64,000 bases of DNA from Escherichia coli (lineage in GTDB: Bacteria; Pseudomonadota; Gammaproteobacteria; Enterobacterales; Enterobacteriaceae), in assembly GCF_003334815.1 (NCBI RefSeq), contig NZ_QOWO01000013.1; one strand, 5' to 3'. The notes under the pieces were generated by a model. That model worked only from the letters and a program-made list of their open reading frames with translations. It searched no databases and was not told where the DNA came from. This document shows, piece by piece, positions 39,492 through 58,191 of the stretch (position 1 is the stretch's first letter; each line of letters starts with the position of its first letter). Both the position numbers and the translations under genes were made by a program.

Positions 39492-40526
39492 ATGATGAAC
39501 AGCACCAATAAACTTAGTGTTATTATTCCGTTATATAATGCGGGCGATGATTTCCGCACTTGTATGGAATCTTTAATTACGCAAACCTGGACTGCTCTGG
39601 AAATCATTATTATTAACGATGGTTCAACGGATAATTCTGTTGAAATAGCAAAGTATTACGCAGAAAACTATCCGCACGTTCGTTTGTTGCATCAGGCGAA
39701 TGCTGGCGCATCGGTGGCGCGTAATCGTGGGATTGAAGTGGCAACGGGCAAATATGTCGCTTTTGTCGATGCTGACGATGAAGTCTATCCCACCATGTAC
39801 GAAACGCTGATGACCATGGCGTTAGAGGACGACCTCGACGTGGCGCAGTGCAACGCTGACTGGTGTTTTCGTGAAACGGGAGAAACCTGGCAATCCATCC
39901 CCACCGATCGCCTTCGCTCAACCGGCGTATTAACCGGCCCGGACTGGCTGCGGATGGGGCTTTCTTCGCGCCGTTGGACTCACGTTGTCTGGATGGGGGT
40001 TTATCGCCGTGATGTTATTGTTAAAAATAACATTAAATTTATTGCCGGATTACATCATCAGGATATTGTCTGGACAACAGAATTCATGTTTAACGCGCTG
40101 CGTGCGCGATATACCGAGCAATCATTATATAAATATTATCTGCATAATACGTCAGTGAGTCGGTTGCATAGACAAGGGAATAAAAACCTTAATTATCAAC
40201 GTCACTATATTAAGATTACCCGCCTGCTGGAGAAATTAAATCGAAATTATGCCGACAAAATTATGATTTATCCGGAATTTCATCAGCAAATAACTTACGA
40301 GGCATTGCGTGTTTGCCATGCGGTGCGCAAAGAGCCGGATATTCTTACCCGCCAACGGATGATTGCCGAGATATTTACTTCCGGTATGTATAAGCGCCTG
40401 ATTACCAATGTGCGCAGCGTGAAGGTCGGTTACCAGGCGTTACTGTGGTCTTTCCGCTTATGGCAATGGCGCGACAAAACGCGGTCGCACCATCGCATTA
40501 CGCGTAGCGCCTTTAATTTGCGCTAG
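39492..40526 (+). CDS. waaH: family 2 glycosyltransferase WaaH (YibD)
   Basis: ORF track 344 aa; GT2 N-terminus LSVIIPLYNAG...IIIINDGSTDNS and DxD (FVDADDE). Confidence 0.88.
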   Translation: MMNSTNKLSVIIPLYNAGDDFRTCMESLITQTWTALEIIIINDGSTDNSVEIAKYYAENYPHVRLLHQANAGASVARNRGIEVATGKYVAFVDADDEVYPTMYETLMTMALEDDLDVAQCNADWCFRETGETWQSIPTDRLRSTGVLTGPDWLRMGLSSRRWTHVVWMGVYRRDVIVKNNIKFIAGLHHQDIVWTTEFMFNALRARYTEQSLYKYYLHNTSVSRLHRQGNKNLNYQRHYIKITRLLEKLNRNYADKIMIYPEFHQQITYEALRVCHAVRKEPDILTRQRMIAEIFTSGMYKRLITNVRSVKVGYQALLWSFRLWQWRDKTRSHHRITRSAFNLR

Positions 40527-41472
40527 CGTTAAACTTCGCCGCTTCGGGCTGTTTGCCCCAGCCTTGCCACTGATGCTGGAAGTAAACGATCAGCGTGCTC
40601 TGGCTGATGCTTTCGCTTAATACTTCAAAGAAGCGATTAGCATAAACAGGTTCTATCGGTTTCTTCGGTTTGCACAGCTTCACGCCACGGAACGGATTAC
40701 GCGGTGCATCAGGCACAGCGTTTTTCGGCGGTGTAGAAGTATCAACCTGCGGTTCATTCAGCAAGCTGCTGGCTTTCACCAGCGTAATGTCTGGCGGCAG
40801 GTTATAAACCATCTGTTGCAACACGCGTACCGTTGCAGGGTGAGGATGCCCAATGGCAATGGTCGAACCGTTGCGACGCGCCAGGTCAATTGCGCGATTA
40901 AATTGCACACGGATGTCCGCTTCATTTTGCGAATCGTCGAGGAATACCTTCCGTTTGATCACCTTCACGCCAGTGCCTTGCGCGGCGCGCATCGCCTGGG
41001 TATTACCGATGGTTACGCTGTCGAGGAAGTAAAGATTGTAACGCTCCAGCGCCTGCATCACTTTCTGCATACCAAACAGGTTAGAGGTCATCTTGCTGCC
41101 CATGTGGTTGTTGATCCCCACGGCATAGGGCACGTTATTGACCGCACTACGAATAATGCGCTCAATTTCGTCGCTGCTCATCTCCGGGCGTAGCGTATTT
41201 TTCTCCAGCGGCTGTTTACTCAACGGTGCCATCGGGAGATGAATCAACACTTCGTGCCCGCTGTTATGCGCTTTGGTCGCCATCTCTCTGGCGTGCGGTG
41301 AATCGGGTAATACAGCGACGGAGATAGCGGAAGGCATCGCCAGCACCTGGTTTTCGTTGTGCGGGCGATACCCAAAATCATCAATGACGATGGCAAGTTT
41401 GCCAGCAAGTACGGGGGAGGAGAGCGCCAACAGAGCGGCAAATGCAAGAACGTTACGACGAAATGGAAACAA
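40513..41472 (-). CDS. yibQ: divergent polysaccharide deacetylase family protein YibQ
   Basis: ORF track 319 aa with N-terminal signal-like hydrophobic segment; 3' end overlaps waaH 3' end by 14 nt. Confidence 0.82.
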   Translation of the reverse strand: MFPFRRNVLAFAALLALSSPVLAGKLAIVIDDFGYRPHNENQVLAMPSAISVAVLPDSPHAREMATKAHNSGHEVLIHLPMAPLSKQPLEKNTLRPEMSSDEIERIIRSAVNNVPYAVGINNHMGSKMTSNLFGMQKVMQALERYNLYFLDSVTIGNTQAMRAAQGTGVKVIKRKVFLDDSQNEADIRVQFNRAIDLARRNGSTIAIGHPHPATVRVLQQMVYNLPPDITLVKASSLLNEPQVDTSTPPKNAVPDAPRNPFRGVKLCKPKKPIEPVYANRFFEVLSESISQSTLIVYFQHQWQGWGKQPEAAKFNASAN

Positions 41473-41475
41473 AAC

Positions 41476-42735
41476 TTATCTTCCCAACCACGGCTGTGGA
41501 TTGACCGCCTGACCCTGGCGGCGAATTTCGAAATAGAGTGAAGGCCGACCCTGACCGCCACTGCTGCCCACCAGTGCAATCGGCTGGCCCGCGCGAACCT
41601 GCGAACCAACGCTCACCAGTGCGCTCTGATTATAGCCGTAAAGACTCATGTCGCCTTTACCATGCTCAACCACCACCACCAGACCGTAGCCTTGCAGCCA
41701 GTCAGCCAGAATCACCCGACCGTCGGCAATCGCTTTAACTTCAGTACCTTCAGAAGCACCGATAACCATACCTTTCCAGCGTAATTCACCCTGTAGCTGT
41801 TCGCCATAGCGATGCAGCGTCGGCCCGCGAACCGGCCAGAATGCCTGACCACGCGGCGCGCCCAGACCACCGGTACGGGACATCAGCGATTTTTCGCTTT
41901 CGGTCGGTTTGTAGGTGGTGCCTTTGCGCGTCGCTTCTTTCTGGCGGTCGCGAACCGCCTGGGCCTCACGTGCTTCTCGTTCTGCACGCGCTTTCGCCGC
42001 GGCTTCCGCACGGGCAATGCTGTTACGCAGACGGGATTCGTTGGCGCGCAGCTCGCTCAACTGTTGCTGACCTTGCTGGATGGAAGACTCCAGCCCTGCC
42101 AGCGTCTTTTTACGCTCGTTCAGCGCCTGAGTCAGTTTCGCCTGTTGGGCGCGCTGCTCATATAACAGCGTTTGTTGCTCGCTCTGTTTCTCTTCCAGTT
42201 CAGCACGCTGCATGGCGACTTCTTCACGCGTTTGCTTCAACTGGGCAATGGTTTCTTGTCGCGCCTGGTTGAGATAGCCGAAATAAGCCTGTAAACGCTG
42301 TCCACGCTGGCTTTCTTCACCGCTGAGAATCAGCTGAATACCGGTATGCTCGCCCTGACGGAATGCGGCATCCAGTTGTGCGGCGAGGCTGCGCTCCTGG
42401 GCGGCTTTTTGCTGCTCCAGTTTGGCAATCGACGCGTTCATCTCATCAATCTGTTTATTGAGTTGATTGAGCGTGTTTTGCGTTTCGCGCAGCTTACGGG
42501 TGGCTTCAGAGATCGCTTCTTCCTGCTTTTTCAATTGTGCGAGCAGGCTTGCGCGTTGTTGTTGCTTTTGGCGTACCGCGCGCTCTTTTGCGGCGATGTC
42601 AGCCTGAATAGATTTGAGTTGGTCACGCTCATCCGCGTGGGCGGAAAAGGCGCACAACAATACGCCAGCGCTAAGAACGCTGGCGTAGATGATGGGCCTG
42701 ATTGCAAACCTGCGCGGTTTCACGGCCCGTGTCAT
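41476..42735 (-). CDS. envC: murein hydrolase activator EnvC (coiled coil + LytM/M23-like domain)
   Basis: ORF track 41476..42759; start MTRAVKPRR at ATG 42735 (419 aa); Gln/Ala-rich coiled coil. Confidence 0.9.
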   Translation of the reverse strand: MTRAVKPRRFAIRPIIYASVLSAGVLLCAFSAHADERDQLKSIQADIAAKERAVRQKQQQRASLLAQLKKQEEAISEATRKLRETQNTLNQLNKQIDEMNASIAKLEQQKAAQERSLAAQLDAAFRQGEHTGIQLILSGEESQRGQRLQAYFGYLNQARQETIAQLKQTREEVAMQRAELEEKQSEQQTLLYEQRAQQAKLTQALNERKKTLAGLESSIQQGQQQLSELRANESRLRNSIARAEAAAKARAEREAREAQAVRDRQKEATRKGTTYKPTESEKSLMSRTGGLGAPRGQAFWPVRGPTLHRYGEQLQGELRWKGMVIGASEGTEVKAIADGRVILADWLQGYGLVVVVEHGKGDMSLYGYNQSALVSVGSQVRAGQPIALVGSSGGQGRPSLYFEIRRQGQAVNPQPWLGR

Positions 42736-42768
42736 GGTATTAATCGCCTTTCCCCTCATGGGGAGGGA

Positions 42769-44313
42769 TTATTCCACGATGAACAGCGGCTTACCAGTCA
42801 TCTCTTGCGGGATTTCCATACCCATCAGCGACAACATGGTCGGCGCGATGTCAGAAAGTTTGCCGCCTTCAACCGCTTTCACGTTCTTATCACCAACGTA
42901 AATCAGCGGAACTGGCAGGTTGGTGTGTGCCGTGTGTGCCTGACCCGTTGCCGGATCGCGCATCTGCTCAGCGTTACCGTGGTCAGCGGTGATCAGCAGT
43001 TGTCCACCCACGGACTCAACCGCTTTCGCGACTTCTTCCACGCAGTGATCCAGCGCTTCAACCGCTTTAACCGCCGCTTCCATCACCCCGGTGTGACCTA
43101 CCATGTCGCCGTTCGGATAGTTACAGATGATGGTGTCGTATTTGCCGCTCTTGATGGCCGCAACCAGTTTTTCGGTCAGCTCTGCGGAGCTCATTTCCGG
43201 TTGCAGATCGTAGGTAGCCACTTTCGGTGAGTTGATCAGAATGCGATCTTCGCCTTTGAACGACTCTTCTACGCCACCGTTGAAGAAGAAAGTAACGTGG
43301 GCATATTTTTCGGTTTCGGAAATACGCAACTGAGTTTTGTCGTTTTTCGCCATCCACTCGCCGAAGGTGTTAACCAGGGAAGCGGGTGGGTAAGCAACCG
43401 CAGTTTTGATGTCAGCGGCGTATTCGGTCAGCATCACGAAATCGACGTTAACCACTTTCTTACGCGCGAAGCCATCGAAATCAGCGTTCACGAAAGCACG
43501 AGTGATTTCACGCGCGCGGTCAGCACGGAAGTTCATGAAAATCAGTGCATCGCCGTCTTCCATTGCCGCGTCTGGCTGACCTTCAGCACGGATAACGGTC
43601 GCTTTCACGAATTCATCATTTTCGTCGCGAGCATAAGCAGCCTGCAAACCAGCAACGGCGGTATCGGCCTGGAACTCGCCCTGCGCCAGAGTCAGCAGGT
43701 CATAAGCTTTTTCTACGCGATCCCAACGGTTATCGCGGTCCATCGCGTAGTAACGACCAATGATGGACGCTACGCGGCCTTTGCCCAGCGCGGCAAATTT
43801 TTCTTCGAATTTTTTCAGCGAGGATTCAGCACTGCGCGGCGGAGTGTCGCGACCGTCAAGGAATGCGTGCAGGTAGATTTTTTCTGCGCCGCGTTCAGCT
43901 GCCAGTTCTACCATCGCCATGATGTGATCTTCGTGGCTGTGTACGCCGCCTGCGGAGAGCAGACCCATAATGTGTACCGCTTTGCCTGCGTTTTTCGCTT
44001 TATCTACCGCGCCAGTCAGCACCGGATTAGCAAAGAAAGCGCGATCTTTGATTTCAACGTCCAGACGAGTCAGGTCCTGATACACGATGCGGCCGGCACC
44101 CAGGTTAACGTGGCCTACTTCGGAGTTACCCATCTGACGGTCAGGCAGACCGACTTCCAGACCGGAAGCGTCGATTAGGGTATGCGGACGATTGGCCCAC
44201 AGTGCATCCATTACCGGGGTTTTAGCACTAAAAATGGCGTTATCCTGCTGTTCTTCGCGATAGCCATAGCCATCCAGAATCACCAGTACCATAGGTTTTT
44301 TAGAAACCAACAT
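42769..44313 (-). CDS. gpmM: 2,3-bisphosphoglycerate-independent phosphoglycerate mutase
   Basis: ORF track 42769..44457; conserved start [19 protein letters not shown] at ATG 44313 (514 aa). Confidence 0.94.
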
Positions 44314-44557
44314 TGCGACAACCTCATACTCAAGAGTCAAAATTTGCGTAATTTTACTACAGCTGAATCGATAAAATAGCCTCTGAAGATCAAAATATAC
44401 GACCGCTCGCGGCAAGCCGATGCCAGATTTACGCTTTTTTTTCGTCGCGCCCCGCAAAATTGCATTCCAGTTAACGCGCTGGCTGTATTTGCCGCACCGC
44501 GCAGGTATACTCCTTTCCTGGTTTTTTTAATCACTACGTCGGGAGTTGTTACCCCCC

Positions 44558-44989
44558 ATGCAAGAAATTATGCAATTTGTTGGCCGTCATCCCATACTGA
44601 GTATCGCCTGGATCGCGTTACTGGTGGCGGTTCTTGTGACTACGTTTAAGAGCCTGACCTCGAAAGTGAAGGTGATTACTCGTGGTGAAGCTACGCGTCT
44701 GATCAACAAAGAAGACGCTGTGGTTGTGGATTTACGTCAGCGTGATGACTTCCGTAAAGGCCATATCGCAGGTTCTATTAATCTGTTGCCGAGCGAAATC
44801 AAAGCCAACAATGTTGGTGAGCTTGAGAAGCACAAAGACAAACCGGTTATCGTGGTAGACGGTTCTGGCATGCAGTGCCAGGAGCCTGCAAACGCACTGA
44901 CGAAAGCTGGTTTTGCGCAAGTATTCGTGCTGAAAGAAGGCGTCGCTGGCTGGGCTGGCGAAAACTTGCCTTTGGTGCGCGGCAAATAA
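44558..44989 (+). CDS. yibN: rhodanese-domain membrane protein YibN
   Basis: ORF track 44546..44989 (TTG); ATG 44558 gives 143 aa; N-terminal TM then rhodanese fold. Confidence 0.85.
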
Positions 44990-45130
44990 TTTACCTGTCG
45001 TCTTTCATGATGCAGGCCGTTAGCTGCAATTAGGCCCCCAGCGACTTATTGTTATAAGCTTCTGGGGACACTCCATTTTGCTGCCGCCCTGCAACATGAA
45101 ATTTCAGGGTAAAAAAACAGGAGCTAATTT

Positions 45131-45382
45131 ATGGCCAATGTTGAAATCTATACCAAAGAAACCTGCCCGTATTGCCATCGTGCAAAAGCACTGCTGAGCA
45201 GCAAGGGCGTGAGTTTCCAGGAGCTGCCGATCGATGGCAACGCCGCCAAGCGTGAAGAGATGATCAAACGCAGCGGTCGCACCACGGTTCCCCAGATTTT
45301 TATTGACGCACAGCACATTGGCGGCTGTGATGACTTGTATGCATTGGATGCACGTGGTGGACTGGATCCCCTGCTGAAATAA
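45131..45382 (+). CDS. grxC: glutaredoxin 3
   Basis: ORF track 83 aa; CPYC active site. Confidence 0.95.
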
Positions 45383-45444
45383 CGTGTGAACGTTGGCATT
45401 ACATTGCGCAGTATTTAAGGACAACACTTAAGGGTTTTCTACAC

Positions 45445-45912
45445 ATGTCAGAACAAAACAACACTGAAATGACTTTCCAGATCCAACGTATTTATACCAA
45501 GGATATCTCTTTCGAAGCGCCGAACGCGCCGCACGTTTTCCAGAAAGATTGGCAACCAGAAGTTAAACTTGATCTGGATACGGCATCTTCCCAACTGGCA
45601 GATGACGTATACGAAGTGGTACTGCGTGTTACCGTAACGGCCTCTTTGGGCGAAGAAACCGCGTTCCTGTGTGAAGTTCAGCAGGGCGGTATTTTCTCCA
45701 TCGCGGGTATCGAAGGCACCCAGATGGCGCATTGCCTGGGAGCATACTGCCCGAACATTCTGTTCCCGTATGCTCGTGAGTGCATCACCAGCATGGTATC
45801 CCGCGGTACATTCCCGCAACTGAACCTTGCGCCGGTTAACTTCGATGCGCTGTTCATGAACTATTTGCAGCAGCAGGCTGGCGAAGGTACTGAAGAACAT
45901 CAGGATGCCTGA
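45445..45912 (+). CDS. secB: protein-export chaperone SecB
   Basis: ORF track 155 aa [20 protein letters not shown]... Confidence 0.96.
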
Positions 45913-46931
45913 TGAACCAACGTAATGCTTCAATGACTGTGATCGGTGCCGGCTCGTACGGCACCGCTCTTGCCATCACCCTGGCAAGAAATGGCCACGA
46001 GGTTGTCCTCTGGGGCCATGACCCTGAACATATCGCAACGCTTGAACGCGACCGCTGTAACGCCGCGTTTCTCCCCGATGTGCCTTTTCCCGATACGCTC
46101 CATCTTGAAAGCGATCTCGCCACTGCGCTGGCAGCCAGCCGTAATATTCTCGTCGTCGTACCCAGCCATGTCTTTGGTGAAGTGCTGCGCCAGATTAAAC
46201 CACTGATGCGTCCTGATGCGCGTCTGGTGTGGGCGACCAAAGGGCTGGAAGCGGAAACCGGACGTCTGTTACAGGACGTGGCGCGTGAGGCCTTAGGCGA
46301 TCAAATTCCGCTGGCGGTTATCTCTGGCCCAACGTTTGCGAAAGAACTGGCGGCAGGTTTACCGACAGCTATTTCGCTGGCCTCGACCGATCAGACCTTT
46401 GCCGATGATCTCCAGCAGCTGCTGCACTGCGGCAAAAGTTTCCGCGTTTACAGCAATCCGGATTTCATTGGCGTGCAGCTTGGCGGCGCGGTGAAAAACG
46501 TTATTGCCATTGGTGCGGGGATGTCCGACGGTATCGGTTTTGGTGCGAATGCGCGTACGGCGCTGATCACCCGTGGGCTGGCTGAAATGTCGCGTCTTGG
46601 TGCGGCGCTGGGTGCCGACCCTGCCACCTTTATGGGCATGGCGGGGCTTGGCGATCTGGTGCTTACCTGTACCGACAACCAGTCGCGTAACCGCCGTTTT
46701 GGCATGATGCTCGGTCAGGGCATGGATGTACAAAGCGCGCAGGAGAAGATTGGTCAGGTGGTGGAAGGCTACCGCAATACGAAAGAAGTCCGCGAACTGG
46801 CGCATCGCTTCGGCGTTGAAATGCCAATAACCGAGGAAATTTATCAAGTATTATATTGCGGAAAAAACGCGCGCGAGGCAGCATTGACTTTACTAGGTCG
46901 TGCACGCAAGGACGAGCGCAGCAGCCACTAA
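45912..46931 (+). CDS. gpsA: NAD(P)H-dependent glycerol-3-phosphate dehydrogenase
   Basis: ORF track 339 aa; NAD-binding [10 protein letters not shown]; start overlaps secB stop. Confidence 0.95.
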
Positions 46932-47010
46932 CCCCAGGGAACCTTTGTTACCGCTATGACCCGGCCCGCGCAGAACGGGCCGGTCATTATCTCATCGTGT
47001 GGAGTAAGCA

Positions 47011-47832
47011 ATGTCGTGTGAAGAACTGGAAATTGTCTGGAACAATATTAAAGCCGAAGCCAGAACGCTGGCGGACTGTGAGCCAATGCTGGCCAGTTTT
47101 TACCACGCGACGCTACTCAAGCACGAAAACCTTGGCAGTGCACTGAGCTACATGCTGGCGAACAAGCTGTCATCGCCAATTATGCCTGCTATTGCTATCC
47201 GTGAAGTGGTGGAAGAAGCCTACGCCGCTGACCCGGAAATGATCGCCTCTGCGGCCTGTGATATTCAGGCGGTGCGTACCCGCGACCCGGCAGTCGATAA
47301 ATACTCAACCCCGTTGTTATACCTGAAGGGTTTTCATGCCTTGCAGGCCTATCGCATCGGTCACTGGTTGTGGAATCAGGGGCGTCGCGCACTGGCAATC
47401 TTTCTGCAAAACCAGGTTTCTGTGACGTTCCAGGTCGATATTCACCCGGCAGCAAAAATTGGTCGCGGTATCATGCTTGACCACGCGACAGGCATCGTCG
47501 TTGGTGAAACGGCGGTGATTGAAAACGACGTATCGATTCTGCAATCTGTGACGCTTGGCGGTACGGGTAAATCTGGTGGTGACCGTCACCCGAAAATTCG
47601 TGAAGGTGTGATGATTGGCGCGGGCGCGAAAATCCTCGGCAATATTGAAGTTGGGCGCGGCGCGAAGATTGGCGCAGGTTCCGTGGTGCTGCAACCGGTG
47701 CCGCCGCATACCACCGCCGCTGGCGTTCCGGCTCGTATTGTCGGTAAACCAGACAGCGATAAGCCATCAATGGATATGGACCAGCATTTCAACGGTATTA
47801 ACCATACATTTGAGTATGGGGATGGGATCTAA
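47011..47832 (+). CDS. cysE: serine O-acetyltransferase
   Basis: ORF track 273 aa; hexapeptide-repeat acyltransferase. Confidence 0.95.
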   Translation: MSCEELEIVWNNIKAEARTLADCEPMLASFYHATLLKHENLGSALSYMLANKLSSPIMPAIAIREVVEEAYAADPEMIASAACDIQAVRTRDPAVDKYSTPLLYLKGFHALQAYRIGHWLWNQGRRALAIFLQNQVSVTFQVDIHPAAKIGRGIMLDHATGIVVGETAVIENDVSILQSVTLGGTGKSGGDRHPKIREGVMIGAGAKILGNIEVGRGAKIGAGSVVLQPVPPHTTAAGVPARIVGKPDSDKPSMDMDQHFNGINHTFEYGDGI

Positions 47833-47846
47833 TGTCCTGTGATCGT

Positions 47847-47879
47847 GCCGGATGCGATGTAATCATCTATCCGGCCTAC
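47847..47879. repeat. REP-like palindromic element between convergent cysE and trmL
   Basis: GCCGGATGCG...ATCCGGCCTAC resembles the REP consensus. Confidence 0.5.
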
Positions 47880-47884
47880 AGTAA

Positions 47885-48358
47885 CTAATCTCTCAATACC
47901 GCTCCCGGATACCCCAACTGCCGCCAGGCTTCATACACCACTACCGACACCGCATTGGACAGATTCATGCTGCGGCTGTCCGGCACCATCGGAATGCGAA
48001 TTTTTTGTTCAGCGGGCAGGGCATCAAGAATGCTCGCTGGCAGGCCGCGTGTTTCCGGGCCGAACATCAGATAATCGCCATCCTGATAGCTTACGGCGCT
48101 GTGAGCAGGTGTACCTTTCGTGGTGAGGGCGAACAGGCGCTGGGGATTTTCTGCTTCGAGGAACGCGCGATAGTCATGATGACGCGTAACGGCGGTAAAC
48201 TCGTGATAGTCCAGCCCCGCGCGGCGCAGGCGCTTATCGTCCCAGGCAAATCCCATCGGTTCGATGATATGCAGACGAAAGCCGGTATTAGCGCAAAGAC
48301 GGATGATGTTGCCAGTATTTGGCGGAATTTCTGGTTCGTAAAGTACGATGTTTAGCAT
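47885..48358 (-). CDS. trmL: tRNA (cytidine/uridine-2'-O)-methyltransferase TrmL (SPOUT)
   Basis: ORF track 157 aa. Confidence 0.9.
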
Positions 48359-48416
48359 ACTGCCCCCTTAGTGCGGGGGCAGGATAGCAGAAAATTGGTG
48401 AGCAGTGCGGCCTTTT

Positions 48417-48547
48417 CCCCTCACCCCGGCCCTCTCCCCGGAGGGGCGAGGGAGAAAAAAAGAGTGCGGTGTCGTTTCAGAGTGAGGGAGTACATACAGC
48501 GCCGAACGGTCCCCTCTCCCTGAGGGAGAGGGTTAGGGTGAGGGGGC
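48417..48547. repeat. pair of inverted GC-rich hairpin repeats (CCCTCACCC-N3-CCCTCTCC-N4-GGAGAGGG type)
   Basis: copy at 48417-48453 and reverse-complement copy at 48509-48547, between lldD stop and trmL start. Confidence 0.6.
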
Positions 48548-48555
48548 GCAAACGA

Positions 48556-49746
48556 CTATGCCGCATTCCCTTTCGCCATGGGAGCCAGTGCCGCAGGCAA
48601 CTCTTTACCCAGCCCCTGCACCAGCGAATCTTGCGTAATTTCGCTGATCGATTTCGCGCCAGTCAGCGTCATCGCCACTTTCATCTCTTTTTCGATCAGA
48701 TTTAGCAGGTTAGCTACACCCGCCTGGCCCGCTGTTGCCAGCGCATACAAGAAAGCACGACCCAGCAGTACGGTGTCGGCACCGAGCGCAATCATACGCA
48801 CGACATCAAGCCCGTTACGAATTCCGCTATCCGCCAGAATGGCTATATCACCTTTCACCGCATCTGCAATAGCAGGCAGTGCACGGGCGGAAGAGAGTAC
48901 ACCGTCCAGCTGGCGGCCACCGTGGTTAGAAACCACAATTCCATCAGCACCAAAACGTACTGCATCGCGCGCATCTTCCGGATCGAGGATCCCTTTGATC
49001 ACCATCGGGCCATCCCAGAAATCGCGGATCCATTCAAGGTCTTTCCATGAGATGGACGGATCGAAGTTATTCCCCAGCCAGCCGATGTAATCTTCCAGTC
49101 CGGTCGGTTTGCCGAGATAAGCTGAGATATTACCTAAATCATGTGGACGACCGTTCAGGCCCACATCCCACGCCCATTGCGGATGTGTCACCGCTTGCAA
49201 GTAGCGGCGCATTGCCGCGTTCGGGCCGCTCATACCTGAATGCGCATCACGGTAGCGTGCGCCCGGTGTCGGCATATCCACGGTGAAAACCAGCGTCGAA
49301 CAACCCGCTGCTTTTGCTCGCTCCAGCGCGTTACGCATAAAGCCGCGATCGCGCAGTACATAAAGCTGGAACCACATTGGGCGCTTGATGGCTGGCGCGA
49401 CTTCTTCAATCGGGCAAACGGAAACCGTCGAGAGAGTAAACGGAATACCATGCGCGTCCGCCGCTTTGGCTGCCTGAACTTCGCCACGACGCGCATACAT
49501 GCCACACAAACCCACCGGAGCCAGTGCCACCGGCATCGACAATTTCTCATTAAACAGCGTCGTTTCCAGGCTTAAGTCGGACATGTTTTTCAGAATACGC
49601 TGGCGCAGCGCCACTTCTGACAAATCTTCCACGTTGCGGCGCAGCGTGTATTCAGAATATGCACCACCATCCATATAGTGGAACAGGAACGGCGGCAGAA
49701 TGCGTTGCGCTGCGGCGCGATAATCGCTGGCTGCGGAAATAATCAT
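48556..49746 (-). CDS. lldD: L-lactate dehydrogenase (FMN-dependent)
   Basis: ORF track 396 aa; start overlaps lldR stop. Confidence 0.95.
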
Positions 49747-50519
49747 GCGTTTTTCTCCCTCGAATGCTCATTATGCTCACCGGGCAGGCGGGTAATCCGT
49801 GCGTGGCGAGCCTGATCTTCATCGAATCGTTTCATGGTGGTGTGAACAAAACTAAGGTGCGCCATCATTGCTTTACGCGCCCCGTCAGCATCACCGGCAA
49901 AAATGGCGTCAATGACAGCCTGATGTTGTTCGGTCAGTTGTGAAAAAACCGGTGGCACCAGATACATCCGCTGACGGCTATGCTTCACTGAGGATTGCAG
50001 GACATCGAAGAAACCGCGCATGGTTTGCAGCAGCACGATGTTATGTGAGGCTTCGGCAATCGCCAGATGAAAACGAACGTCCGCTTGTGAGGCGATATCC
50101 GGGTCTTCACTTAGCGTTGCTTCAAAGCAAAGCTGAATCTTTTCTTTGTCGCCAGGTGTGGCGCGCATTGCCGCATGCCATGCGGTGCTGGCTTCAATGG
50201 CGTAGCGGGCTTCCAGAATATCGAAACTGTAATCCGGATCATCGGCCATCAGTGTTTTTAGCGGCTGGACGATGTTTTGCTCCGACCATGTGTCATGACG
50301 CCAGCGAATAAACGTCCCGCCGCCGCGTCGACTGAGCAGCACGCCTTCACTCACCAGTTTTGCCAGCGCCTCGCGCAGTGAATTACGTGATACGCCGAGT
50401 TGCATCGCCAGTTGGCGCTCAGCGGGCAACTTCATGCCCGCTTCCAGGTTTTTTTCATCAATCAGCGCCCGCACACGATCGGCAACCTCGTCTGACAGGC
50501 GTCTGGGTAAAACAATCAT
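49743..50519 (-). CDS. lldR: GntR-family lactate operon regulator LldR
   Basis: ORF track 49743..50534; ATG 50519 gives 258 aa and overlaps the lldP stop. Confidence 0.9.
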
Positions 50520-52174
50520 TAAGGAATCATCCACGTTAAGACATAAGCCTGAAGCGTGGTGATCACGCCCACTATACAGGTGAAGATCAGGCTGTGTTTG
50601 ACAGTAAAGCGGAACAAATCAGACTCTTTGCCCACCAGGCCTACCGCCGCACAGGCGATAGCGATAGATTGCGGGGAGATCATCTTACCGGTGACGCCAC
50701 CGGTGGTATTGGCGGCAACCAGCAACAGATCAGAGACGCCAATTTGTTGTGCTGCGGTGGCTTGCAGCGCGGCGAACAGGGCGTTAGATGAGGTATCCGA
50801 CCCGGTCAGGAATACCCCCAGCCAGCCGAGGAACGGCGAGAAGAAGGTGAATGCATGACCGGTGTGCGCCAGTGCCAGCGCCAGTGTTGATGACAGTCCG
50901 GAATAGTTCGAAATAAAGGCGAATGCCAGCACCATACCGATGGAGTAGATGGGCAGAGCCAGTTCTTTCAGCGTGCTGCCGAAGGTGCTGATAGCGTCAG
51001 ACGGTTTCATCTTCAGCCAGACAATCGAGAGCAGTGCAGCAAACAGAATGGCGGTGCCGGTGGCAGAGAACCAGTCAAACTTAAACACGGCGGCATAGGC
51101 TGTAGCCTCGCTGACCACTGGCGGCATACGGGCAACCAGTTTATCGAGGTACGGCACCGGAATATTGATCACCCACTCATACAGCGCGCCACCCGATGCG
51201 AACAGGGCTTTAAACGGCGGGATACTCCACAGTGTTACGGTAGCTGTCAGGAACAGGAACGGTGTCCAGGCACGTAACACCTGACCCGCAGTGTAACCGG
51301 TGTGGGCCAGCGTCATATCAACCTGTGACGCCCCCAAATCACCAAAACGGAATACACGCACTGGCTGCCAGCGTTTGAGGAACAGCGTCAGGCAGAGCAG
51401 TGATACCAGCGAAGAGATAATGTCCGGCAGCTCCGGCCCAATGAAGTTAGAGCTAAGGTACTGAGCGATGGCAAACGAGCCGCCCGCAACCACGACCGCA
51501 GGCCACGTCTCTTTGATACCGCGCCAGCCGTCCATAATCGCCATGATCCAGAACAGCACGATAATGGTCATAAACGGTAGCTGCCGCCCCACCATCTGAC
51601 CAATCTCAAAGCTGTCGATACCTGTTACCTGTCCGGCAACCAGGATTGGAATGCCCATCGCACCAAATGCCACTGGCGCGGTGTTAACAATCAGGCACAG
51701 CCCGGCGGCGTACAGCGGTTTAAAACCCAGGCCGACCAGCAATGCGGCGGTAATTGCTACCGGTGCGCCAAAGCCTGCGGCTCCTTCAAGGAACGCGCCG
51801 AAACAGAAACCGACGATCAGCATTTGCAGACGCTGGTCAGGGGTTATCGAAAGAATAGACGAGCGAATGATGTCAAACTGCCCGGTTTTCACCGAGATCT
51901 TATAGACGAACACCGCTGCAATAATGATCCACGCGATGGGCCACAACCCGTAGAAGAAACCATAAACCACCGAGGCCAGCGCGTTAGCGACCGGCATTTT
52001 ATAGAACAGCAAAGCCACGGCAAGGGCGATTGCCACCGTCCACGAGGCGGCGACGTATCCTTTCAGTTTGAGCTTAATCAGCGCAAAGAAGAAAAACAGG
52101 ATGGGAAGCGATGCTATCAGACTGGAAAGCCAGATATTCCCGGCGGGATCGTAGTTTTGTTGCCAGAGATTCAT
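50519..52174 (-). CDS. lldP: L-lactate permease
   Basis: ORF track 50519..52201; conserved start [13 protein letters not shown] at ATG 52174 (551 aa). Confidence 0.92.
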
Positions 52175-52475
52175 TGCAGGTCTCCTGGAGTCCACGCACA
52201 TCGTGTAATGAGTCTGTTGCTCATCTCCTTGTCACACGTTGTGTAAAAGTGGCACTGCCAATTGTGTTGTGTAGGGATAATGACAATGAATGGTTAACTA
52301 AATGTTATGTATTGGCAACATTGATGTGAGTTTTAATTGGGAAATTGTGAACCAGAGGTCAGATAAGCGAAGAATTGGTAGGGCCAATTCTTGTGGGGGG
52401 AGATGTCTGGTAAAGAAAAGGGCAATCCTCATCAGAGAATTGCCCTTAGGTTGTTGATCCAGAGCGCCTTATCTT

Positions 52476-52509
52476 GCCGGATGCGGCGTGAACACCTTAC
52501 TCGGCCTAT
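52476..52509. repeat. REP element
   Basis: GCCGGATGCGGCGTGAACACCTTACTCGGCCTAT close to the REP consensus; downstream of yibL. Confidence 0.6.
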
Positions 52510-52545
52510 AGGAATGTGCAGAATCACCCTGTAGATACTGTGTTC

Positions 52546-52908
52546 TTAAAACGCGGTCTTTGAAAACCCAGTCATCTCCTGCAGGCCCATTTCGCGGCCC
52601 AGTGCGGTCATTGGGTGCACAACGACCAGTCCGCGAACACTTTTCTTCAGCTTGCCCATATCAGCCTGCTCTTTTTTGGTAATTGCGCGCTGGAATGGCA
52701 TCTTCATCAGCTTCTGTGCTTCTTTACTCAGTTTTTGGCTATGAACTTCACGCAGGCGAGCAATTTCTGCTTCCAGCGTGGCTTTCTCTTTTTCCAGCTC
52801 GGCATATTTGTCTGCGGCTTCAACCAGCGAAAGATCGGCCTGCTGGTGGCGGATGGCGTCCAGGCGATCGCTGAGACGTTTGATTTCGTTTTTTTCGACT
52901 TCTTTCAT
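52546..52908 (-). CDS. yibL: uncharacterised protein YibL
   Basis: ORF track 120 aa. Confidence 0.82.
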
Positions 52909-53192
52909 GTGATGGCTTCTGATAAAGATAAATTTATAGCCCCTAGTATGCGCGACCAGGTGCTTTGTTCACAACTAATGACATTGTAATAGTTCTGTAA
53001 CGTAATCATTAACATGCTCAAAAACTACGCAATTCGTTGATTAATTAAGAAATCTATAGAAAAAAGATAATAAACAGCAGCGGATGATTATTGAGGATTC
53101 AGCACGTTTTCCTTAATGTCATCTTTACCGGGAACCTAAACTAAAATTGGCGGCCGCGCATTCCCGGCGCGGGGTAATACGGAGATATCATC

Positions 53193-53402
53193 ATGGGCAA
53201 ATTAGGTGAAAACGTTCCGCTTCTTATCGATAAAGCCGTAGATTTCATGGCATCAAGCCAGGCGTTCCGGGAGTATCTGAAAAAACTTCCTCCCCGTAAC
53301 GCGATTCCGTCCGGAATACCCGATGAAAGCGTGCCGTTATATCTACAACGTCTGGAGTATTATCGTCGGCTTTATCGGCCGAAGCAGGTAGAGGGGCAGT
53401 AA
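53193..53402 (+). CDS. yibT: small protein YibT
   Basis: ORF track 69 aa; GGAG 9 nt upstream of ATG. Confidence 0.7.
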
Positions 53403-53413
53403 GCAGACGTTGC

Positions 53414-54001
53414 TTACTTTTGAAAGGCTTTTTTTAAGCTGATTTTGGAAATCAGCTCAGTCAGTGAAAGGACCATTGTTGATCGCACAGCCTGTTGATA
53501 GCGCTGAATTTGCATTGCATACAAACTGGAGTCTGCTGGTTCAAACTGTGGCGGCGGTGGTAACGCCGCCACGCAGTGCAGTTCACCAAAGGGTCCAAGG
53601 ATTTCGTCGTCGGTAAAGGCGTACTCGTTGCCGTCGTGATTTAGCTCTTCACGCAATGCCATCAGCAGTTCCGCATCTTCGTATTCCTGGCGGTTAATGA
53701 CGCCCAACCCGTAAATGAGTTTTAAACGCACAGAAAGATCGCCCAGCGGACCATCGCCGTCGAGTAACGGTTCTACAGCATACTTCACCGCGTAATCGTC
53801 TTTGCGGAATACCTGAAGCACCAGAAGATTTACCGCCTCGGTCAGGAGCTCGACGGCGGTGATCAGAAAGCTTCGCACGGTTTTGCCAGCATTCAGACGC
53901 TCAAGCACACGGTTTTCAAAGGCCTGGGTTTGTTCCATTGTTGCCTGCATATCTGACAATCTGTTATTCGGGCGCAGGGTGTCCTGCGCCTGGTCCACCA
54001 T
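53414..54001 (-). CDS. mtlR: mannitol operon repressor MtlR
   Basis: ORF track 195 aa; start overlaps mtlD stop (TAATG). Confidence 0.9.
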   Translation of the reverse strand: MVDQAQDTLRPNNRLSDMQATMEQTQAFENRVLERLNAGKTVRSFLITAVELLTEAVNLLVLQVFRKDDYAVKYAVEPLLDGDGPLGDLSVRLKLIYGLGVINRQEYEDAELLMALREELNHDGNEYAFTDDEILGPFGELHCVAALPPPPQFEPADSSLYAMQIQRYQQAVRSTMVLSLTELISKISLKKAFQK

Positions 54002-55149
54002 TATTGCATTGCTTTATAAGCGGTTACCGCCTCGGATACAACCTCGCTGTTGGCATCAAGACCGGAAATCTGTGCCAGCGCCGCCTGCGGACCTTTGTCA
54101 GCGATCAGTGCTGCCAGTTCCTGAGCCTGCGGATCATCTTCACTGCGGAAGTGCATTGCAGCGGCAATACCTTCAATCAGGTTTTTATGTGGCAGACCAT
54201 ATTCCAGCGTACCGAGCAGTGGCTTGATCAGACGGTCGCCAGCACTCAGTTTACGCAGTGGCTGACGGCCTACGCGCTCTACATCATCTTTCAGATACGG
54301 GTTCTCAAAACGGCCGAGAATTTTCTGGATGTACGCCGCATGCTTGTCAGCGTCAAAGCCGTAGCGCTTGATCAATACTGCACCACTTTCTTCCATCGCA
54401 CCTTTTACCACCGCGCGGATTTTCTCGTCGAGAATCGCGTCACGAATGGTCTGATGACCGGCCAGTTTTCCGAGGTACGCGGTTATAGCATGACCCGTGT
54501 TCAGGGTGAAGAGTTTACGTTCGACAAATGCCATCAGGTTGTCGGTTAACTCCATGCCTGGGATGTTCGGCAGTGCGCCTTTGAACTGCGTTTTATCGAC
54601 AATCCATTCGCTGAAGGTTTCTACCGTCACTTCCAGCGGATCGTTAGTTGCCGAAGCCGAAGGCGGTACGATGCGGTCAACGGCGGAATCGACAAAGCCA
54701 ACGTGTTCTTCTACCCACGCTTTGGCGTCTTCCGGCAGGGCGTTCATCACATGGCCTTTCAGCTGCGTGGTACCGCGTACCATGTTTTCACAGGCGATGA
54801 TGTTCAGCGGGGATTCATTACCTTGTTCTTTACGTTTCACCAGCCCTTTGGCGATTGCCGGAGCAATACGTTCCAGCACAACCGGGCCAACGGCGGTAGT
54901 GACTAAATCAACCTGAGCAATCAGATCAACGACATCATCACCAATGCTGCTGACAGCATTGACGCCGGAAACGGTATCTACCTGCTCGGTTTCACCAACC
55001 ACATGTACCTGATAGCTATGACGGGCATTCAGGGCATCAAGTACCACCTGATTGACATCGGCAAACGTCAGTTGGATACCCGCGTCTGCCAGCAGTTTAC
55101 CGATAAAGCCACGACCGATATTACCTGCGCCAAAATGTAATGCTTTCAT
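54001..55149 (-). CDS. mtlD: mannitol-1-phosphate 5-dehydrogenase
   Basis: ORF track 54001..55467; conserved Rossmann start [17 protein letters not shown] at ATG 55149 (382 aa); the upstream extension in the track runs through REP repeats. Confidence 0.94.
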
Positions 55150-55180
55150 AGTATTAACCTTCATCAATGTTTTTACCCGA

Positions 55181-55375
55181 GAGGGCTGGGGTGAGGCTTT
55201 TCCCTCACCCAAACCCTCTCCGTGAGGAGAGGGGCAGCGCCGGATGCGGCGTAAGCGCCTTATCCGGCCTACAAGAACGTGCAAATTCAACAAATTGTGA
55301 TGCATCCTGTAGGCCTGATAAGCGTAGCGCATCAGGCAATTAACCCCACCTTCTCCATGTGGAGAGGGTGGGATT
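55181..55375. repeat. BIME-like cluster: CCCTC/GAGGG hairpins flanking two inverted REP elements
   Basis: hairpin about 55201-55234, REP 55241-55273, inverted REP 55305-55337, hairpin about 55346-55372; between mtlA stop and mtlD start. Confidence 0.7.
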
Positions 55376-55378
55376 GGA

Positions 55379-57292
55379 TTACTTACGACCTGCCAGCAGT
55401 TCCAGCACTTCATCCACGCTGGTGGTGTGTGCCAGACGCTCGATGACGGACTCATCATCCAGTGCATTGGTCAGGCTGGTGATAACCTGAATGTGCTCGT
55501 TGTTACGGGCAGCAATACCAATCACCAGACGGGCAATGTCATCTTCTTCTTCACCGAAGCGCACGCCTTCCGGGTACTGGCAGAACACGACGCCCGTTTT
55601 CAGTACGCGATCTTTCGCTTCAACCGTACCGTGTGGCACCGCGATAGACTCACCCAGATAAGTCGGGGTCAGTTTTTCACGATCCAGCATCGCCTGAACG
55701 TATTCCGGCTCAACGTAACCGCCTTTCACCAGCTGCTCGCCAGCAAAACGAATCGCTTCTTCTTTGGTTGCCGCTTTGCGACCGAGGAAGATGTTCTCCG
55801 CGCCTAGCTTGAACAGGTTAGCACTGGAATCGTCAAAGCTGTCTTTCAGGCTGTCTTTTACTTTCTCTTCGTTTGCCGTGTGGCGTTGGGCAGCAACCAG
55901 ACGTTCGGTCAGGCTGGTGTACAGGCCGCTGTCGAGGAAGTTGGTCAGCGAAATATGCTGTGCCTGCGGAACCTGGCGCATAGCGCGTTCGGTCAGGTCA
56001 CGGTGAGTGATGACGAGGTCCACATCTGGCGGCAGGTTGTTGATCGCGCTGTTAGTAACAGAAATCTGCGACAGACCTGCATCCTGAATTTTCTTACGCA
56101 GAACGCCTGCGCCCATCGCACTGGAACCCATACCGGCGTCACAGGCAACGATGATTTTACGTACGTGGCTCAGGTCGTTAGTCACATCGCCAGCAGACAG
56201 CGGAGATGCGCCTTTAGACTCAGCTTTCATGTCCTGCATACGACGAGTTGCTGCTTCAATATCATCTTCTTCTTTCACTTTGCTGGTTTTCAGCAAAATA
56301 GCAGAGACAACGAAGGAGACAGCCATCGCCGCACACACACCCGCGATGTTAGCGAAGTAAGCACCTTTTGGTGTCATCGCCAGTACAGCAAGGATAGAAC
56401 CCGGAGATGCCGGAGAAACCAGACCACCGCCCAGGATAGTCAGCGTGAACACGCCAGTCATACCGCCGAGGATGACTGCGAGGATCAGACGCGGATTCAT
56501 CAGCACATACGGGAAGTAGATTTCGTGGATACCCCCCAGGAAGTGGATGATTGCCGCACCGCCCGCAGACTGTTTAGCGCTACCACGACCAAAGAACATG
56601 TACGCCAGCAGCACGCCCATACCTGGACCTGGGTTAGCTTCAATCAGGAAGAAGATTGATTTACCCAGTTCATGGGACTGCTGAATACCCAGCGGCGAGA
56701 AGATACCGTGGTTAATGGCGTTGTTGAGGAACAGGATTTTCGCCGGTTCAACAAAGATAGACGCCAGCGGCAGCATGTCATGGACAACCATGAAGTTAAC
56801 GCCCGCAGCCAGCATTTTGGACAGGGCTTCAACAATCGGGCCAATGCCGAGGAATGCCAGAATAGCGAGGATCATCCCGATGATGCCTGCGGAGAAGTTA
56901 TTCACCAGCATCTCAAAACCGGATTTGATCTTACCGTCTACCCAGCGGTCGAAGTGCTTAATGCACCAGCCGCCCAGCGGACCTGCAATCATAGAACCGA
57001 GGAACATCGGCATGTCTGCGCCGACGATAACGCCCATGGTGGTGATGGCACCGACTACGCCGCCACGTTCGCCGCCTACCAGCTTACCACCGGTATAACC
57101 GATCAGCAGCGGCAGGAGATAAGTGATCATCGGCCCGACCAGCTTCGCCAGCGTCTCGTTCGGTAACCACCCTGTTGGAATAAATAACGCGGTGATGATA
57201 CCCCACGCGATAAACGCGCCGATATTTGGCATCACCATGTTGCTGAGGAAACGACCAAAGCTTTGCACTTTGATCTTAATATCGGATGACAT
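55379..57292 (-). CDS. mtlA: PTS mannitol-specific EIICBA
   Basis: ORF track 637 aa [27 protein letters not shown]... Confidence 0.95.
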
Positions 57293-57435
57293 AAAAACAC
57301 CCCTTCTTATGTTTGCTGTCGCGCAGGCTGGAAGCCCGAGGTTTTTTGTTAATGTGGCGGCAGAGGTAGCCGGACCTTGTAGATACTGCGAAATCTGGCA
57401 CTGAATCGGTTAACTGTCCAGTCGACGGCCTTTTG

Positions 57436-57612
57436 TGTGATATCAATCACATAAATATAGGGGGTAGAGAGGTAATTGACGTGACGTTCATCACAAAACG
57501 CTTGTGTAAAAAAGCAACAAGGCGGCGATTTTCGCTAAAAATGGCATTTAAATGTGAGTAGTGTCACATTTTTGTTTTGATGGTTTGTTGAATCTTTGTG
57601 ATCTGAATCACA
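57436..57612. promoter_or_regulatory. mtl operon control region with four CRP-type sites
   Basis: TGTGA-N6-TCACA at 57436-57451, 57553-57568 and 57597-57612 (perfect half-sites) and cGTGA-N6-TCACA at 57480-57495; 144-320 bp upstream of mtlA start. Confidence 0.65.
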
Positions 57613-57828
57613 AGATATTTTCTTACGGCGTTCACCTGATGTGATCTACAGCATGTTATGCCTTCGTCATACAATCGTTATGTAACTAAGCAACTCATCA
57701 CCTCTAAAAATTATTCTTTGGTGTTATGGCGAGAATCGCGAACCCGGATTATTGTCAAAATATCAGCCTGACTCCCTTCTGGCTGCCAGCCCAAAAACAA
57801 CACTGATAAACGTGAATCCGAGGCAGAT

Positions 57829-58191
57829 ATGTTTCTAAACTATTTCGCGTTGGGAGTGCTGATCTTCGTCTTTCTGGTGATTTTTTATGGAATCATCGCG
57901 ATACATGACATCCCTTATCTGATTGCCAAAAAGCGCAACCATCCCCATGCCGACGCTATTCATACGGCGGGCTGGGTGAGCCTGTTTACTCTGCATGTTA
58001 TCTGGCCGTTTCTGTGGATCTGGGCGACGCTCTATCAACCGGAGCGTGGCTGGGGTATGCAGTCACATGTTGCGTCGCAGGAGAAAGCGACTGACCCGGA
58101 AATCGCCGCACTTTCTGACCGAATTTCCCGGCTGGAGCATCAACTCGCCGCCGAGAAAAAGACTGACTATTCCACGTTCCCGGAGATCTAA
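57829..58191 (+). CDS. yibI: small inner-membrane protein YibI
   Basis: ORF track 120 aa; two hydrophobic segments then a charged C-terminal tail. Confidence 0.82.

Follow-up and report, generated by a model that had tools for sequence, protein, structure and literature searches.

An inverted BoxC repeat pair between lldD and trmL of Escherichia coli, its history at the locus and a possible role at the 3' end of lldD mRNA

The stretch of Escherichia coli DNA analysed here (the window) is 64,000 nucleotides long, and its minus strand corresponds to the plus strand of K-12. The genes lldD and trmL lie on the minus strand and are separated by a spacer of 197 nt; in MG1655, lldD ends at 3,781,017 and trmL starts at 3,781,215. 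Window positions were tied to MG1655 coordinates through these two genes. Of 5,426 complete E. coli genomes, 5,421 have a match to the 701-nt stretch around the spacer's pair of repeats, several of them at 100% identity. The features of the locus are as follows.

47885-48358, minus strand: trmL
48417-48452, minus strand: BoxC/TMECO copy 18, type B, with one stem mismatch and CCG as the second loop, proximal to trmL; CCCTCGCCCC-TCC-GGGGAGAGGG-CCG-GGGTGAGGGG
48453-48511, no strand: spacer between the copies, 59 nt
48508, minus strand: 3' end of the steady-state lldD transcript (...GGGAGAGGGGACC-3'), from Term-seq (Adams et al., 2021; MG1655 3,781,065, plus strand)
48512-48545, plus strand: BoxC/TMECO copy 17, type A, with TTA as the second loop; CCCTCTCCC-TGA-GGGAGAGGG-TTA-GGGTGAGGGG
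48556-49746, minus strand: lldD

The triplex motif pattern TMECO, CCCTCNCCC-N3-6-GGGNGAGGG-N3-GGGNGAGGG (Holder et al., 2015; PMC4666352), has exactly two strict matches in the window, at 48418-48452 (minus strand) and 48512-48544 (plus strand), and none in 100 shuffles. This confirms the opposed GC-rich palindromes that a preliminary description, made from the sequence, had placed between lldD and trmL; the gap that it gave as about 55 bp measures 59 nt between the strict motifs. The core used in that description, CCCTCACCC-N2-4-CCCTCTCC, has three occurrences in the window where 0.00 are expected, and CCCTCACCC and CCCTCTCC are also individually over-represented. The outer arms of the pair (48417-48438 and 48524-48545) are 86% complementary.

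Each copy consists of a 9-bp G/C hairpin and a third G-rich block. Copy 17 starts 11 nt past the lldD stop codon and appears in the lldD sense RNA (minus strand) in its C-rich form, CCCCUCACCC-UAA-CCCUCUCCC-UCA-GGGAGAGGG, which makes a perfect 9-bp hairpin of -18.4 kcal/mol. Its sequence and position are those of entry 17 in Table 1 of Holder et al. (2015), at NC_000913.3 3,781,028-3,781,061, and copy 18 is identical in sequence to entry 18 of the same table, at 3,781,121-3,781,156. The combination of a TTA-loop copy on the plus strand with a CCG-loop copy on the minus strand also fits the published rule that a type A copy is paired with a type B copy. Because motif, sequences and coordinates all coincide with the published table, the two repeats are almost certainly copies 17 and 18 of the BoxC, PIT or TMECO repeat. 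Pair and family are already known (BoxC dates from 1992, and its copies were catalogued one by one in 2015), and their detection here is a rediscovery. The MG1655 RefSeq feature table annotates no repeat features in the lldD-trmL or mtlA-mtlD spacers.

The BoxC family of E. coli reportedly goes back to Bergler in 1992, and its members are said to have been re-described by Hoyne et al. in 2000 as potential intrastrand triplex (PIT) elements. The K-12 GenBank record carries 33 BoxC copies of 51-59 bp (PMC5172473), and in a separate survey BoxC appears among the known repeat families of E. coli, with a length of 56 bp and 32 copies (PMC2267715). For Enterobacter asburiae LF7a, a high-copy genome, 143 copies are reported. 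Holder et al. (2015; PMC4666352) gave the BoxC/PIT sequences the name TMECO, listed 23 of them, and found inverted pairs at five K-12 loci, always of one type A and one type B copy, with copies 17 and 18 among them; the orientation, operon position and neighbour-gene function of the elements were all without bias. BoxC is still without an accepted function, and the published view is that it has no terminator or promoter activity and is a source of genomic instability.

Searched with a 48-nt query covering copy 17, the 5,426 complete E. coli genomes gave 67,608 places, spread over 5,389 of them (median 15 and range 1-27 per genome). Only 54 of these places are on plasmids, the rest being chromosomal, and the census examples listed have no annotated feature beneath the match, placing them between genes as are both window loci, lldD-trmL and mtlA-mtlD. 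Among phage records, 6 of 50,697 match BoxC, several of them apparently mislabelled or contaminated. The plasmid matches likewise include several megabase-sized records that resemble mislabelled chromosomes, and extend to large replicons of Azospirillum (89-91% identity), Rhizobium and Sinorhizobium. These counts uphold the view that the repeats form a dispersed family distinct from REP, and the lldD-trmL pair indeed lacks the REP consensus palindrome. Rfam, searched at E <= 1 over positions 40000-58000, has no family for BoxC; it returned weak naRNA4 hits and one STnc380 hit, and the naRNA4 hits (REP-derived, below threshold) coincide with REPs, at 55213-55269, 52466-52506 and 47841-47876, with none in 48359-48555.

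We further note that the pair has an arrangement of its own. Copies 17 and 18 lie tail-to-tail, with their hairpin ends inward and the GGGTGAGGG blocks outermost, whereas in each of the other four K-12 pairs the GGGTGAGGG blocks face each other, a head-to-head order with spacers of 16-27 nt. The lldD-trmL pair is thus the sole tail-to-tail case among the five, and its 59-nt spacer is both the longest and unique: a 65-nt query overlapping it (48446-48510) is single-copy and is found in 2,712 of 5,426 E. coli genomes. A consensus scan of the lldD-trmL spacer gave no promoter-like and no terminator-like site. When single-stranded, the whole 152-nt unit can be folded into one long hairpin, with z = -4.0 as RNA and z = -2.4 as DNA.

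Relatives of the pair had been proposed at two other places in the window, the mtlA-mtlD spacer and the spacer between gpmM and envC. A scan of the whole window for the two-block core with up to three mismatches found four sites, namely the lldD-trmL pair, 55202-55222 (minus strand, one mismatch) and 55177-55197 (plus strand, three mismatches). The latter two belong to the following features of the mtl spacer.

55176-55197, plus strand: truncated inverted partner of the mtl copy; in mtl sense CCTCACCC-CAG-CCCTCTC-GGG; three mismatches to the two-block core
55202-55233, minus strand: degenerate BoxC copy with 8-nt stems; in mtl sense CCCTCTCC-TCAC-GGAGAGGG-TTT-GGGTGAGGG; one mismatch to the two-block core

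The copy at 55202-55233 falls outside the strict 9-nt-stem pattern and is absent from Holder's list of 23; we treat it as a degenerate relative of BoxC rather than a catalogued member. The inverted partner had been overlooked in the preliminary description, and with it the mtl spacer also holds an inverted pair. The second mtl relative proposed there, the hairpin at 55346-55372 (-23.2 kcal/mol, z = -4.6), was rejected as a member of BoxC: in 4,525 E. coli genomes it is present in exactly one copy each, it lacks a third block, and it has only the 8-mer CCCTCTCC in common with the family. It is a locus-specific hairpin. The miniature hairpin between gpmM and envC (42753-42767) exists as described, and the 5-bp CCCTC/GAGGG stem that is all it has in common with BoxC, with no third block, is too short for it to be assigned to the family or for kinship to be demonstrated.

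The lldD-trmL pair can be followed into other genera. Among 80 trmL loci examined in other species, Kluyvera has the same tail-to-tail arrangement, with a copy that is C-rich in sense just past the lldD stop and a copy that is G-rich in sense adjoining trmL; the flank ACCGTTCGGC follows the first copy in both Kluyvera and E. coli. Pseudocitrobacter carries the pair in the same arrangement with extra partial units between the copies. Kluyvera, Pseudocitrobacter, Superficieibacter and the isolate RIT691 all carry a BoxC copy of unchanged orientation directly 3' of the lldD stop. Degraded remnants proximal to trmL are found in Enterobacter asburiae and in a Pluralibacter MAG, also at loci where a gene other than lldD lies upstream. 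BoxC also occupies its mtlA-mtlD position in other genera (see below), and since it sits at the same two spots there, we infer that the copies are old and that the pair has been inherited vertically at lldD-trmL rather than inserted recently.

Within E. coli, the lldD-trmL spacer exists in at least four alleles, distributed as follows.

K-12-type allele (65-nt probe present): 2,712 of 5,426 genomes
47-nt 'empty' allele, as in E2348/69: 1,267 of 5,426 genomes
Allele with the pair centre replaced by a 34-bp palindrome (an insertion-sequence end): 792 of 5,426 genomes
Other alleles, including small deletions inside a copy: about 650 of 5,426 genomes

One of the variant alleles has a 12-bp deletion. 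The empty allele, which is also that of E. albertii and of the E. coli species representative, has 22 unrelated nucleotides in place of 171 and a different lldD stop codon. It retains a GGGTTA motif whose distance from a conserved TCTGCTATCC box equals that of the flank beside the trmL-proximal copy in Kluyvera. Because GGGTTA stands in register with this Kluyvera flank and the stop codon differs, the empty allele looks like a deletion product. We read the alleles together as erosion of the pair within E. coli by deletions and rearrangements. The opposite polarity, in which a 150-bp unit absent from E2348/69, the E. coli reference genome and E. albertii would be a recent MITE insertion, was considered and rejected, the same tail-to-tail arrangement being present at the same site in Kluyvera and Pseudocitrobacter.

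The 34-bp palindrome that replaces the pair centre in 792 genomes is the terminal palindrome of an IS4/Tn5-family element, which adjoins another BoxC-like sequence on one plasmid. The idea that this element targets BoxC was dropped, as three other insertion sites of the element have unrelated flanks.

The mtlA-mtlD copy is conserved as well. In each of the 13 other species from which the spacer was recovered, covering at least eight genera, a BoxC copy with its inverted half-copy occupies the same site ahead of mtlD; the remainder of the spacer varies from 92 to 235 nt across species. In the window, the half-copy ends 26 nt before the mtlD start codon. In an alignment of 13 species (E. coli and 12 of the 13 others), RNAalifold pairs the G-rich blocks with the half-copy in a long predicted hairpin. 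This hairpin competes with the copy's own hairpin, and the minimum-energy and centroid folds of the E. coli sequence are these two alternatives. On the sense strand, the 20 pairs across 13 species comprise 236 Watson-Crick pairs, 21 G-U pairs and three mismatches; read on the antisense strand, all 21 G-U cells count as mismatches, which raises the number of mismatches to 24 and leaves no G-U pair. Compensatory changes are seen at the hairpin tip, such as GAGAAG/CTTCTC in Kosakonia. The confinement of G-U pairs to the sense strand points to constraint on RNA rather than on DNA. For related species and a structure predicted on the sense strand, this pattern is suggestive only, and the mtl copy may thus be constrained as RNA. 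A literature search found no papers on the mtlA-mtlD intercistronic region.

For lldD itself, the 3'-end mapping that the preliminary description had called for could be supplied from public Term-seq data. Adams et al. (2021; PMC7815308) mapped a 3' end at 3,781,065 (plus strand) in MG1655, which converts to window position 48508 through the lldD stop, and classed it as the 'primary' 3' end of lldD. It lies 4 nt past the 9-bp hairpin of copy 17. The same source gives this end a Rho score of 1.49 with 'significant Rho termination region: Yes', and an intrinsic terminator score of 1.32 against a cut-off of 3.0. Neither hairpin is followed by a U tract.

The tables of Adams et al. (3,110 3' ends in total) were searched by coordinate prefix around all 18 K-12 TMECO loci, covering most, though not every, flank. 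Four of the 18 loci have a mapped 3' end just past a hairpin, and this search found no adjacent 3' end at the others.

3,781,065, plus strand: copy 17, 4 nt after the hairpin
164,636, plus strand: copy 2, 5 nt after the hairpin
3,959,467, minus strand: copy 20, 4 nt after the hairpin
624,567, minus strand: copy 7, 12 nt after the hairpin

On a uniform genome, 0.1-0.2 such hairpin-adjacent ends would be expected by chance; confining all 3' ends to intergenic DNA leaves a marginal excess (P about 0.04-0.07). These tables map no 3' end to copy 18, so a role is not apparent for the pair as such.

A class of RNA ends into which copy 17 fits has been described. Dar and Sorek (2018) showed that Rho-dependent transcripts end just past stable stem-loops without U tracts, which protect them against PNPase and RNase II. 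Copy 17 has the features of such a protective 3' stem-loop: a stem of -18.4 kcal/mol, no U tract, a 3' end 4 nt further on, and a position in a region marked 'Yes' for Rho termination. According to Holder et al. (2015; PMC4666352), Hoyne and Maher (2002) found that the elements act neither as promoters nor as terminators and leave RNA polymerase unaffected. Because copy 17 fits the stem-loop class of Dar and Sorek, the mapped 3' end can be reconciled with the absence of terminator activity as summarized there.

These observations would be accounted for by the following course of events. Transcription of lldPRD would enter the spacer and be ended by Rho further downstream; 3'-to-5' exonucleases would trim the transcript back to the hairpin of copy 17; and this hairpin would set the steady-state 3' end of lldD mRNA 4 nt past the stem. 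Copy 17 would then be a protective 3' stem-loop, a stabiliser resembling REP rather than a terminator. That copy 17 caps lldD mRNA as an exonuclease barrier in this way is a serious possibility that stops a little short of being probable; we infer the barrier, and any effect of copy 17 on lldD mRNA half-life, from the position of the mapped end. Against a role in RNA stand the negative results of Hoyne and Maher, the lack of bias reported by Holder et al., and the limitation of adjacent 3' ends to four of the 18 K-12 loci. In addition, E. albertii and roughly one in four E. coli genomes are without the element at lldD-trmL, and any benefit must therefore be dispensable. The proposal of the preliminary description that these hairpins act in termination or mRNA stability thus divides into two. 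Termination finds no support in the terminator score, the spacer scan, the missing U tract or the reporter assays of Hoyne and Maher as Holder et al. relate them. A role at 3' ends is favoured, if indirectly, by the lldD end 4 nt past copy 17 in a Rho-dependent region and by three further copies with ends 4-12 nt past their hairpins, from which a stabilising effect would follow by inference.

The alternative that keeps most of its force is that the pair acts as DNA. According to the model of Holder et al., the G-rich strand would form an intrastrand purine-motif triplex, or the pair a hairpin or cruciform, when single-stranded in replication, with fork stalling, slippage and deletions as the outcome; the locus would be a hotspot of variation with no RNA role. 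A stable single-strand triplex was indeed observed in vitro by CD and NMR, and TMECO loci were found to be more variable than control intergenic sites (Holder et al., 2015; PMC4666352). At lldD-trmL, the presence of at least four alleles, including partial deletions inside the copies, and the folding of the 152-nt unit into one long single-stranded DNA hairpin are in keeping with such a model. However, the triplex was not detected by DMS footprinting in vivo, and the duplex form gave no triplex signal (Holder et al., 2015; PMC4666352). The persistence of BoxC at the same two positions across several genera argues against simple instability, and in the mtl alignment every one of the 21 non-Watson-Crick pairs is a G-U pair when read in sense, which DNA or the antisense strand would turn into a mismatch. 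We consider the DNA model doubtful as an explanation of the pair. It is compatible with an RNA role, and the two can coexist.

A selfish origin is harder still to sustain for this locus. BoxC would here be a non-autonomous mobile element, a MITE-like or REPIN-like doublet spread by a transposase, and lldD-trmL a landing site without host function. BoxC is scattered through the genome, keeps strictly to intergenic DNA and hardly varies in sequence, and its copy number ranges from 1 to 27 per genome. Three of the four head-to-head K-12 pairs have a homologous 27-nt spacer, and doublets of about 100 bp have therefore been copied as units; the 89-91% identity matches on Azospirillum replicons, along with the matching Rhizobium and Sinorhizobium records, also suit a mobile element. 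Set against these are the absence of a target-site duplication at the pair and an 'empty' allele that is not a clean empty site. BoxC is essentially absent from phages (6 of 50,697 records) and rare on true plasmids, and its orthologous positions across genera denote old, stationary copies. No cognate transposase is known for it, and the insertion-sequence end that lies beside BoxC reflects no general preference. A mobile-element origin is plausible for the BoxC family and does not explain the two old, stationary copies of the window, for which we regard this reading as improbable. Finally, the view that the hairpins are Rho-independent (intrinsic) terminators of lldPRD, with an attenuator before trmL, appeals to strong G/C hairpins immediately after the lldD stop and to an RNA 3' end 4 nt downstream, but is already largely refuted and very improbable given two hairpins without U tracts, an empty consensus scan, a score of 1.32 against a cut-off of 3.0, a site in a Rho-dependent region, and reporter assays by Hoyne and Maher (2002) that, in the account of Holder et al., gave no terminator activity.

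Taken as a whole, the account that we favour, and believe to be probably correct, is that of a BoxC pair, old at its locus, with a role for the element at the 3' end of the RNA. The last part is suggested by the four hairpin-adjacent 3' ends, the retention of BoxC at two loci across genera, and the sense-only G-U pairing at mtlA-mtlD. Should a role at RNA 3' ends or in stability hold, BoxC would stand beside REP as a second family of repeats taken into service as mRNA stabilisers. BoxC is commonly regarded as junk or as an unstable DNA triplex motif. A broader and more speculative extension, which we put forward tentatively, is that some of its copies have been retained as RNA structures of the sense strand over tens of millions of years: one would cap lldD mRNA, and another, with its partner, would form conserved, mutually exclusive hairpins 26-95 nt upstream of mtlD that, in eight or more enterobacterial genera, could set the mtlA:mtlD ratio or the translation of mtlD. 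To the published catalogue, the analysis adds the cross-genus positions, the spacer alleles, the relation of the lldD 3' end to copy 17, and the sense-only mtl pairing.

Comparison with known systems places the pair within BoxC/PIT/TMECO on every point: motif, length, G/C composition, intergenic location, inversion of a type A (TTA) and a type B (CCG) copy, and coordinates. Nothing differs in kind, the tail-to-tail order and the 59-nt spacer being peculiar to this pair within K-12. The mtl copy, with its 8-nt stems, is a degenerate version that escapes the strict published pattern. MITE and REPIN doublets resemble BoxC in having inverted arms that can fold into one long hairpin, and some BoxC doublets have been copied with a conserved spacer. 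Inverted arms are indeed present at lldD-trmL, and the doublet form characteristic of REPIN/RAYT systems is present in BoxC; unlike those doublets, the pair has no flanking target-site duplication, clean empty site or partner transposase, and it is stationary across genera.

REP elements (PU, BIME) are, like BoxC, short multi-copy intergenic palindromes that often form inverted doublets and that can block exonucleases at the 3' ends of mRNAs; the two families occur together in the mtlA-mtlD spacer. Their sequences are unrelated, however: BoxC has no REP consensus and has a third G-rich block, is present in some 15-33 copies per genome where REP has several hundred, and is without a linked RAYT-type transposase. 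The protective stem-loops of Dar and Sorek (2018) differ in being a functional class rather than a sequence family, so that protection by copy 17 would hold by analogy; the points of likeness are a stable hairpin, no U tract, a 3' end a few nucleotides further on, and a location in a region that responds to inhibition of Rho.

Separately from the BoxC repeats themselves, a recognisable hairpin lies directly upstream of trmL, and a strong hairpin follows mtlA in the same window:

Window 48360-48395, minus strand: trmL-upstream hairpin CTGCCCCC-GCACTAA-GGGGGCAG, its 3' edge 1 nt before the trmL ATG.
Window 55342-55378: hairpin of -23.2 kcal/mol (z = -4.6), starting about 7 nt past the mtlA stop codon.

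The trmL-upstream hairpin is preceded by the box TCTGCTATYCTG, and recognisable forms of both were found at 29/29 Enterobacteriaceae loci examined (L015-L043), regardless of which gene lies upstream. A Rho-associated Term-seq 3' end has been mapped to MG1655 position 3,781,218, equivalent to window 48355 and 4 nt inside trmL, and the forward primer of the trmL reporter used in the same study begins at GCACTAAGGGGGCAG, within the hairpin loop (Adams et al. 2021, PMC7815308). The full hairpin is therefore expected to form exclusively in transcripts that read through from lldD, and there it would sequester the ribosome-binding site of trmL.

RNA ends also lie close to the inverted BoxC pair between fepB and entC. 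In the fepB leader, a very abundant Term-seq 3' end maps to MG1655 624,680 on the minus strand (about position 351 of this locus, L008), at -170 relative to the start codon and 4 nt upstream of the pair; one condition gave 103,563 reads and another 243,213 (PMC7815308). Another 3' end is found 12 nt past the pair, so that RNA ends flank the pair on both sides within an iron-regulated 5' UTR.

In the mtlA-mtlD spacer, the BoxC copy and the inverted half-copy 5' of mtlD (window 55176-55246, minus strand) are kept in at least eight genera (13 orthologous loci). Together they are predicted to adopt two mutually exclusive folds, with G-U pairing confined to the sense strand. The copy and half-copy may constitute an undescribed RNA element of the mtl operon; a literature search on mtlA, mtlD and 'intercistronic' returned no match. 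The hairpin just past mtlA is a single-copy sequence present in 4,525 of the 5,426 complete E. coli genomes searched, and Superficieibacter carries a different hairpin at the equivalent position. Elsewhere in the window, the plus strand at 52348-52456 gives a match to the enterobacterial sRNA STnc380 that spans the full model length at 36.4 bits (E = 0.0006), below the Rfam gathering score of 60.

The BoxC pair between lldD and trmL itself differs in other genomes, as at the following loci:

L002 438-471 (E. coli strain 6EVA, equivalent to window 48440-48515): palindrome TGTCTCTTGATCAGGAGATCTGATCAAGAGACAG, with further loci L011, L013, L014, L095 and L096.
L032 9795-9970 (Pseudocitrobacter faecalis lldD-trmL spacer): two tandem 43-nt units between both BoxC copies.

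The first of these, a 34-bp palindrome, replaces the centre of the pair in 792 E. coli genomes. It corresponds to the end (33-34 nt) of an IS4/Tn5-family insertion sequence, the final 19 nt being the IS50 inside end. The palindrome looks like either a minimal two-ended element or a solo end that an insertion sequence left behind. On one plasmid, a copy of this insertion-sequence end likewise adjoins BoxC-like sequence, and such a neighbour is absent at three other insertion sites. Each of the Pseudocitrobacter units consists of a partial BoxC hairpin and CCCTCACC, and their tandem arrangement suggests local duplication within the pair. In Pluralibacter gergoviae, a degenerate BoxC remnant upstream of trmL (L034, about 225-260) adjoins the 16-mer TGTGTATAAGAGACAG, about 250 nt from the contig end. 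This 16-mer has the sequence of the Tn5 mosaic end found in Nextera adapters, and may be either a genuine insertion-sequence end or adapter sequence carried over into the assembly.

Matches to the 48-nt BoxC query extend beyond E. coli chromosomes. Two Campylobacter phage records, MG065686.1 and MG065691.1 (H70 and H71), each match at two places, and both contain 48 nt that equal the E. coli lldD-trmL copy at 100% identity; these matches most likely reflect contaminating E. coli DNA in the assemblies. Large Azospirillum replicons (plasmid matches H77, H79 and H85) match the query many times, with 42-45 of its 48 bases aligned at 89-91% identity; records of Rhizobium and Sinorhizobium contain matches too. 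Alphaproteobacteria therefore have the BoxC motif as well, through either transfer or convergence.
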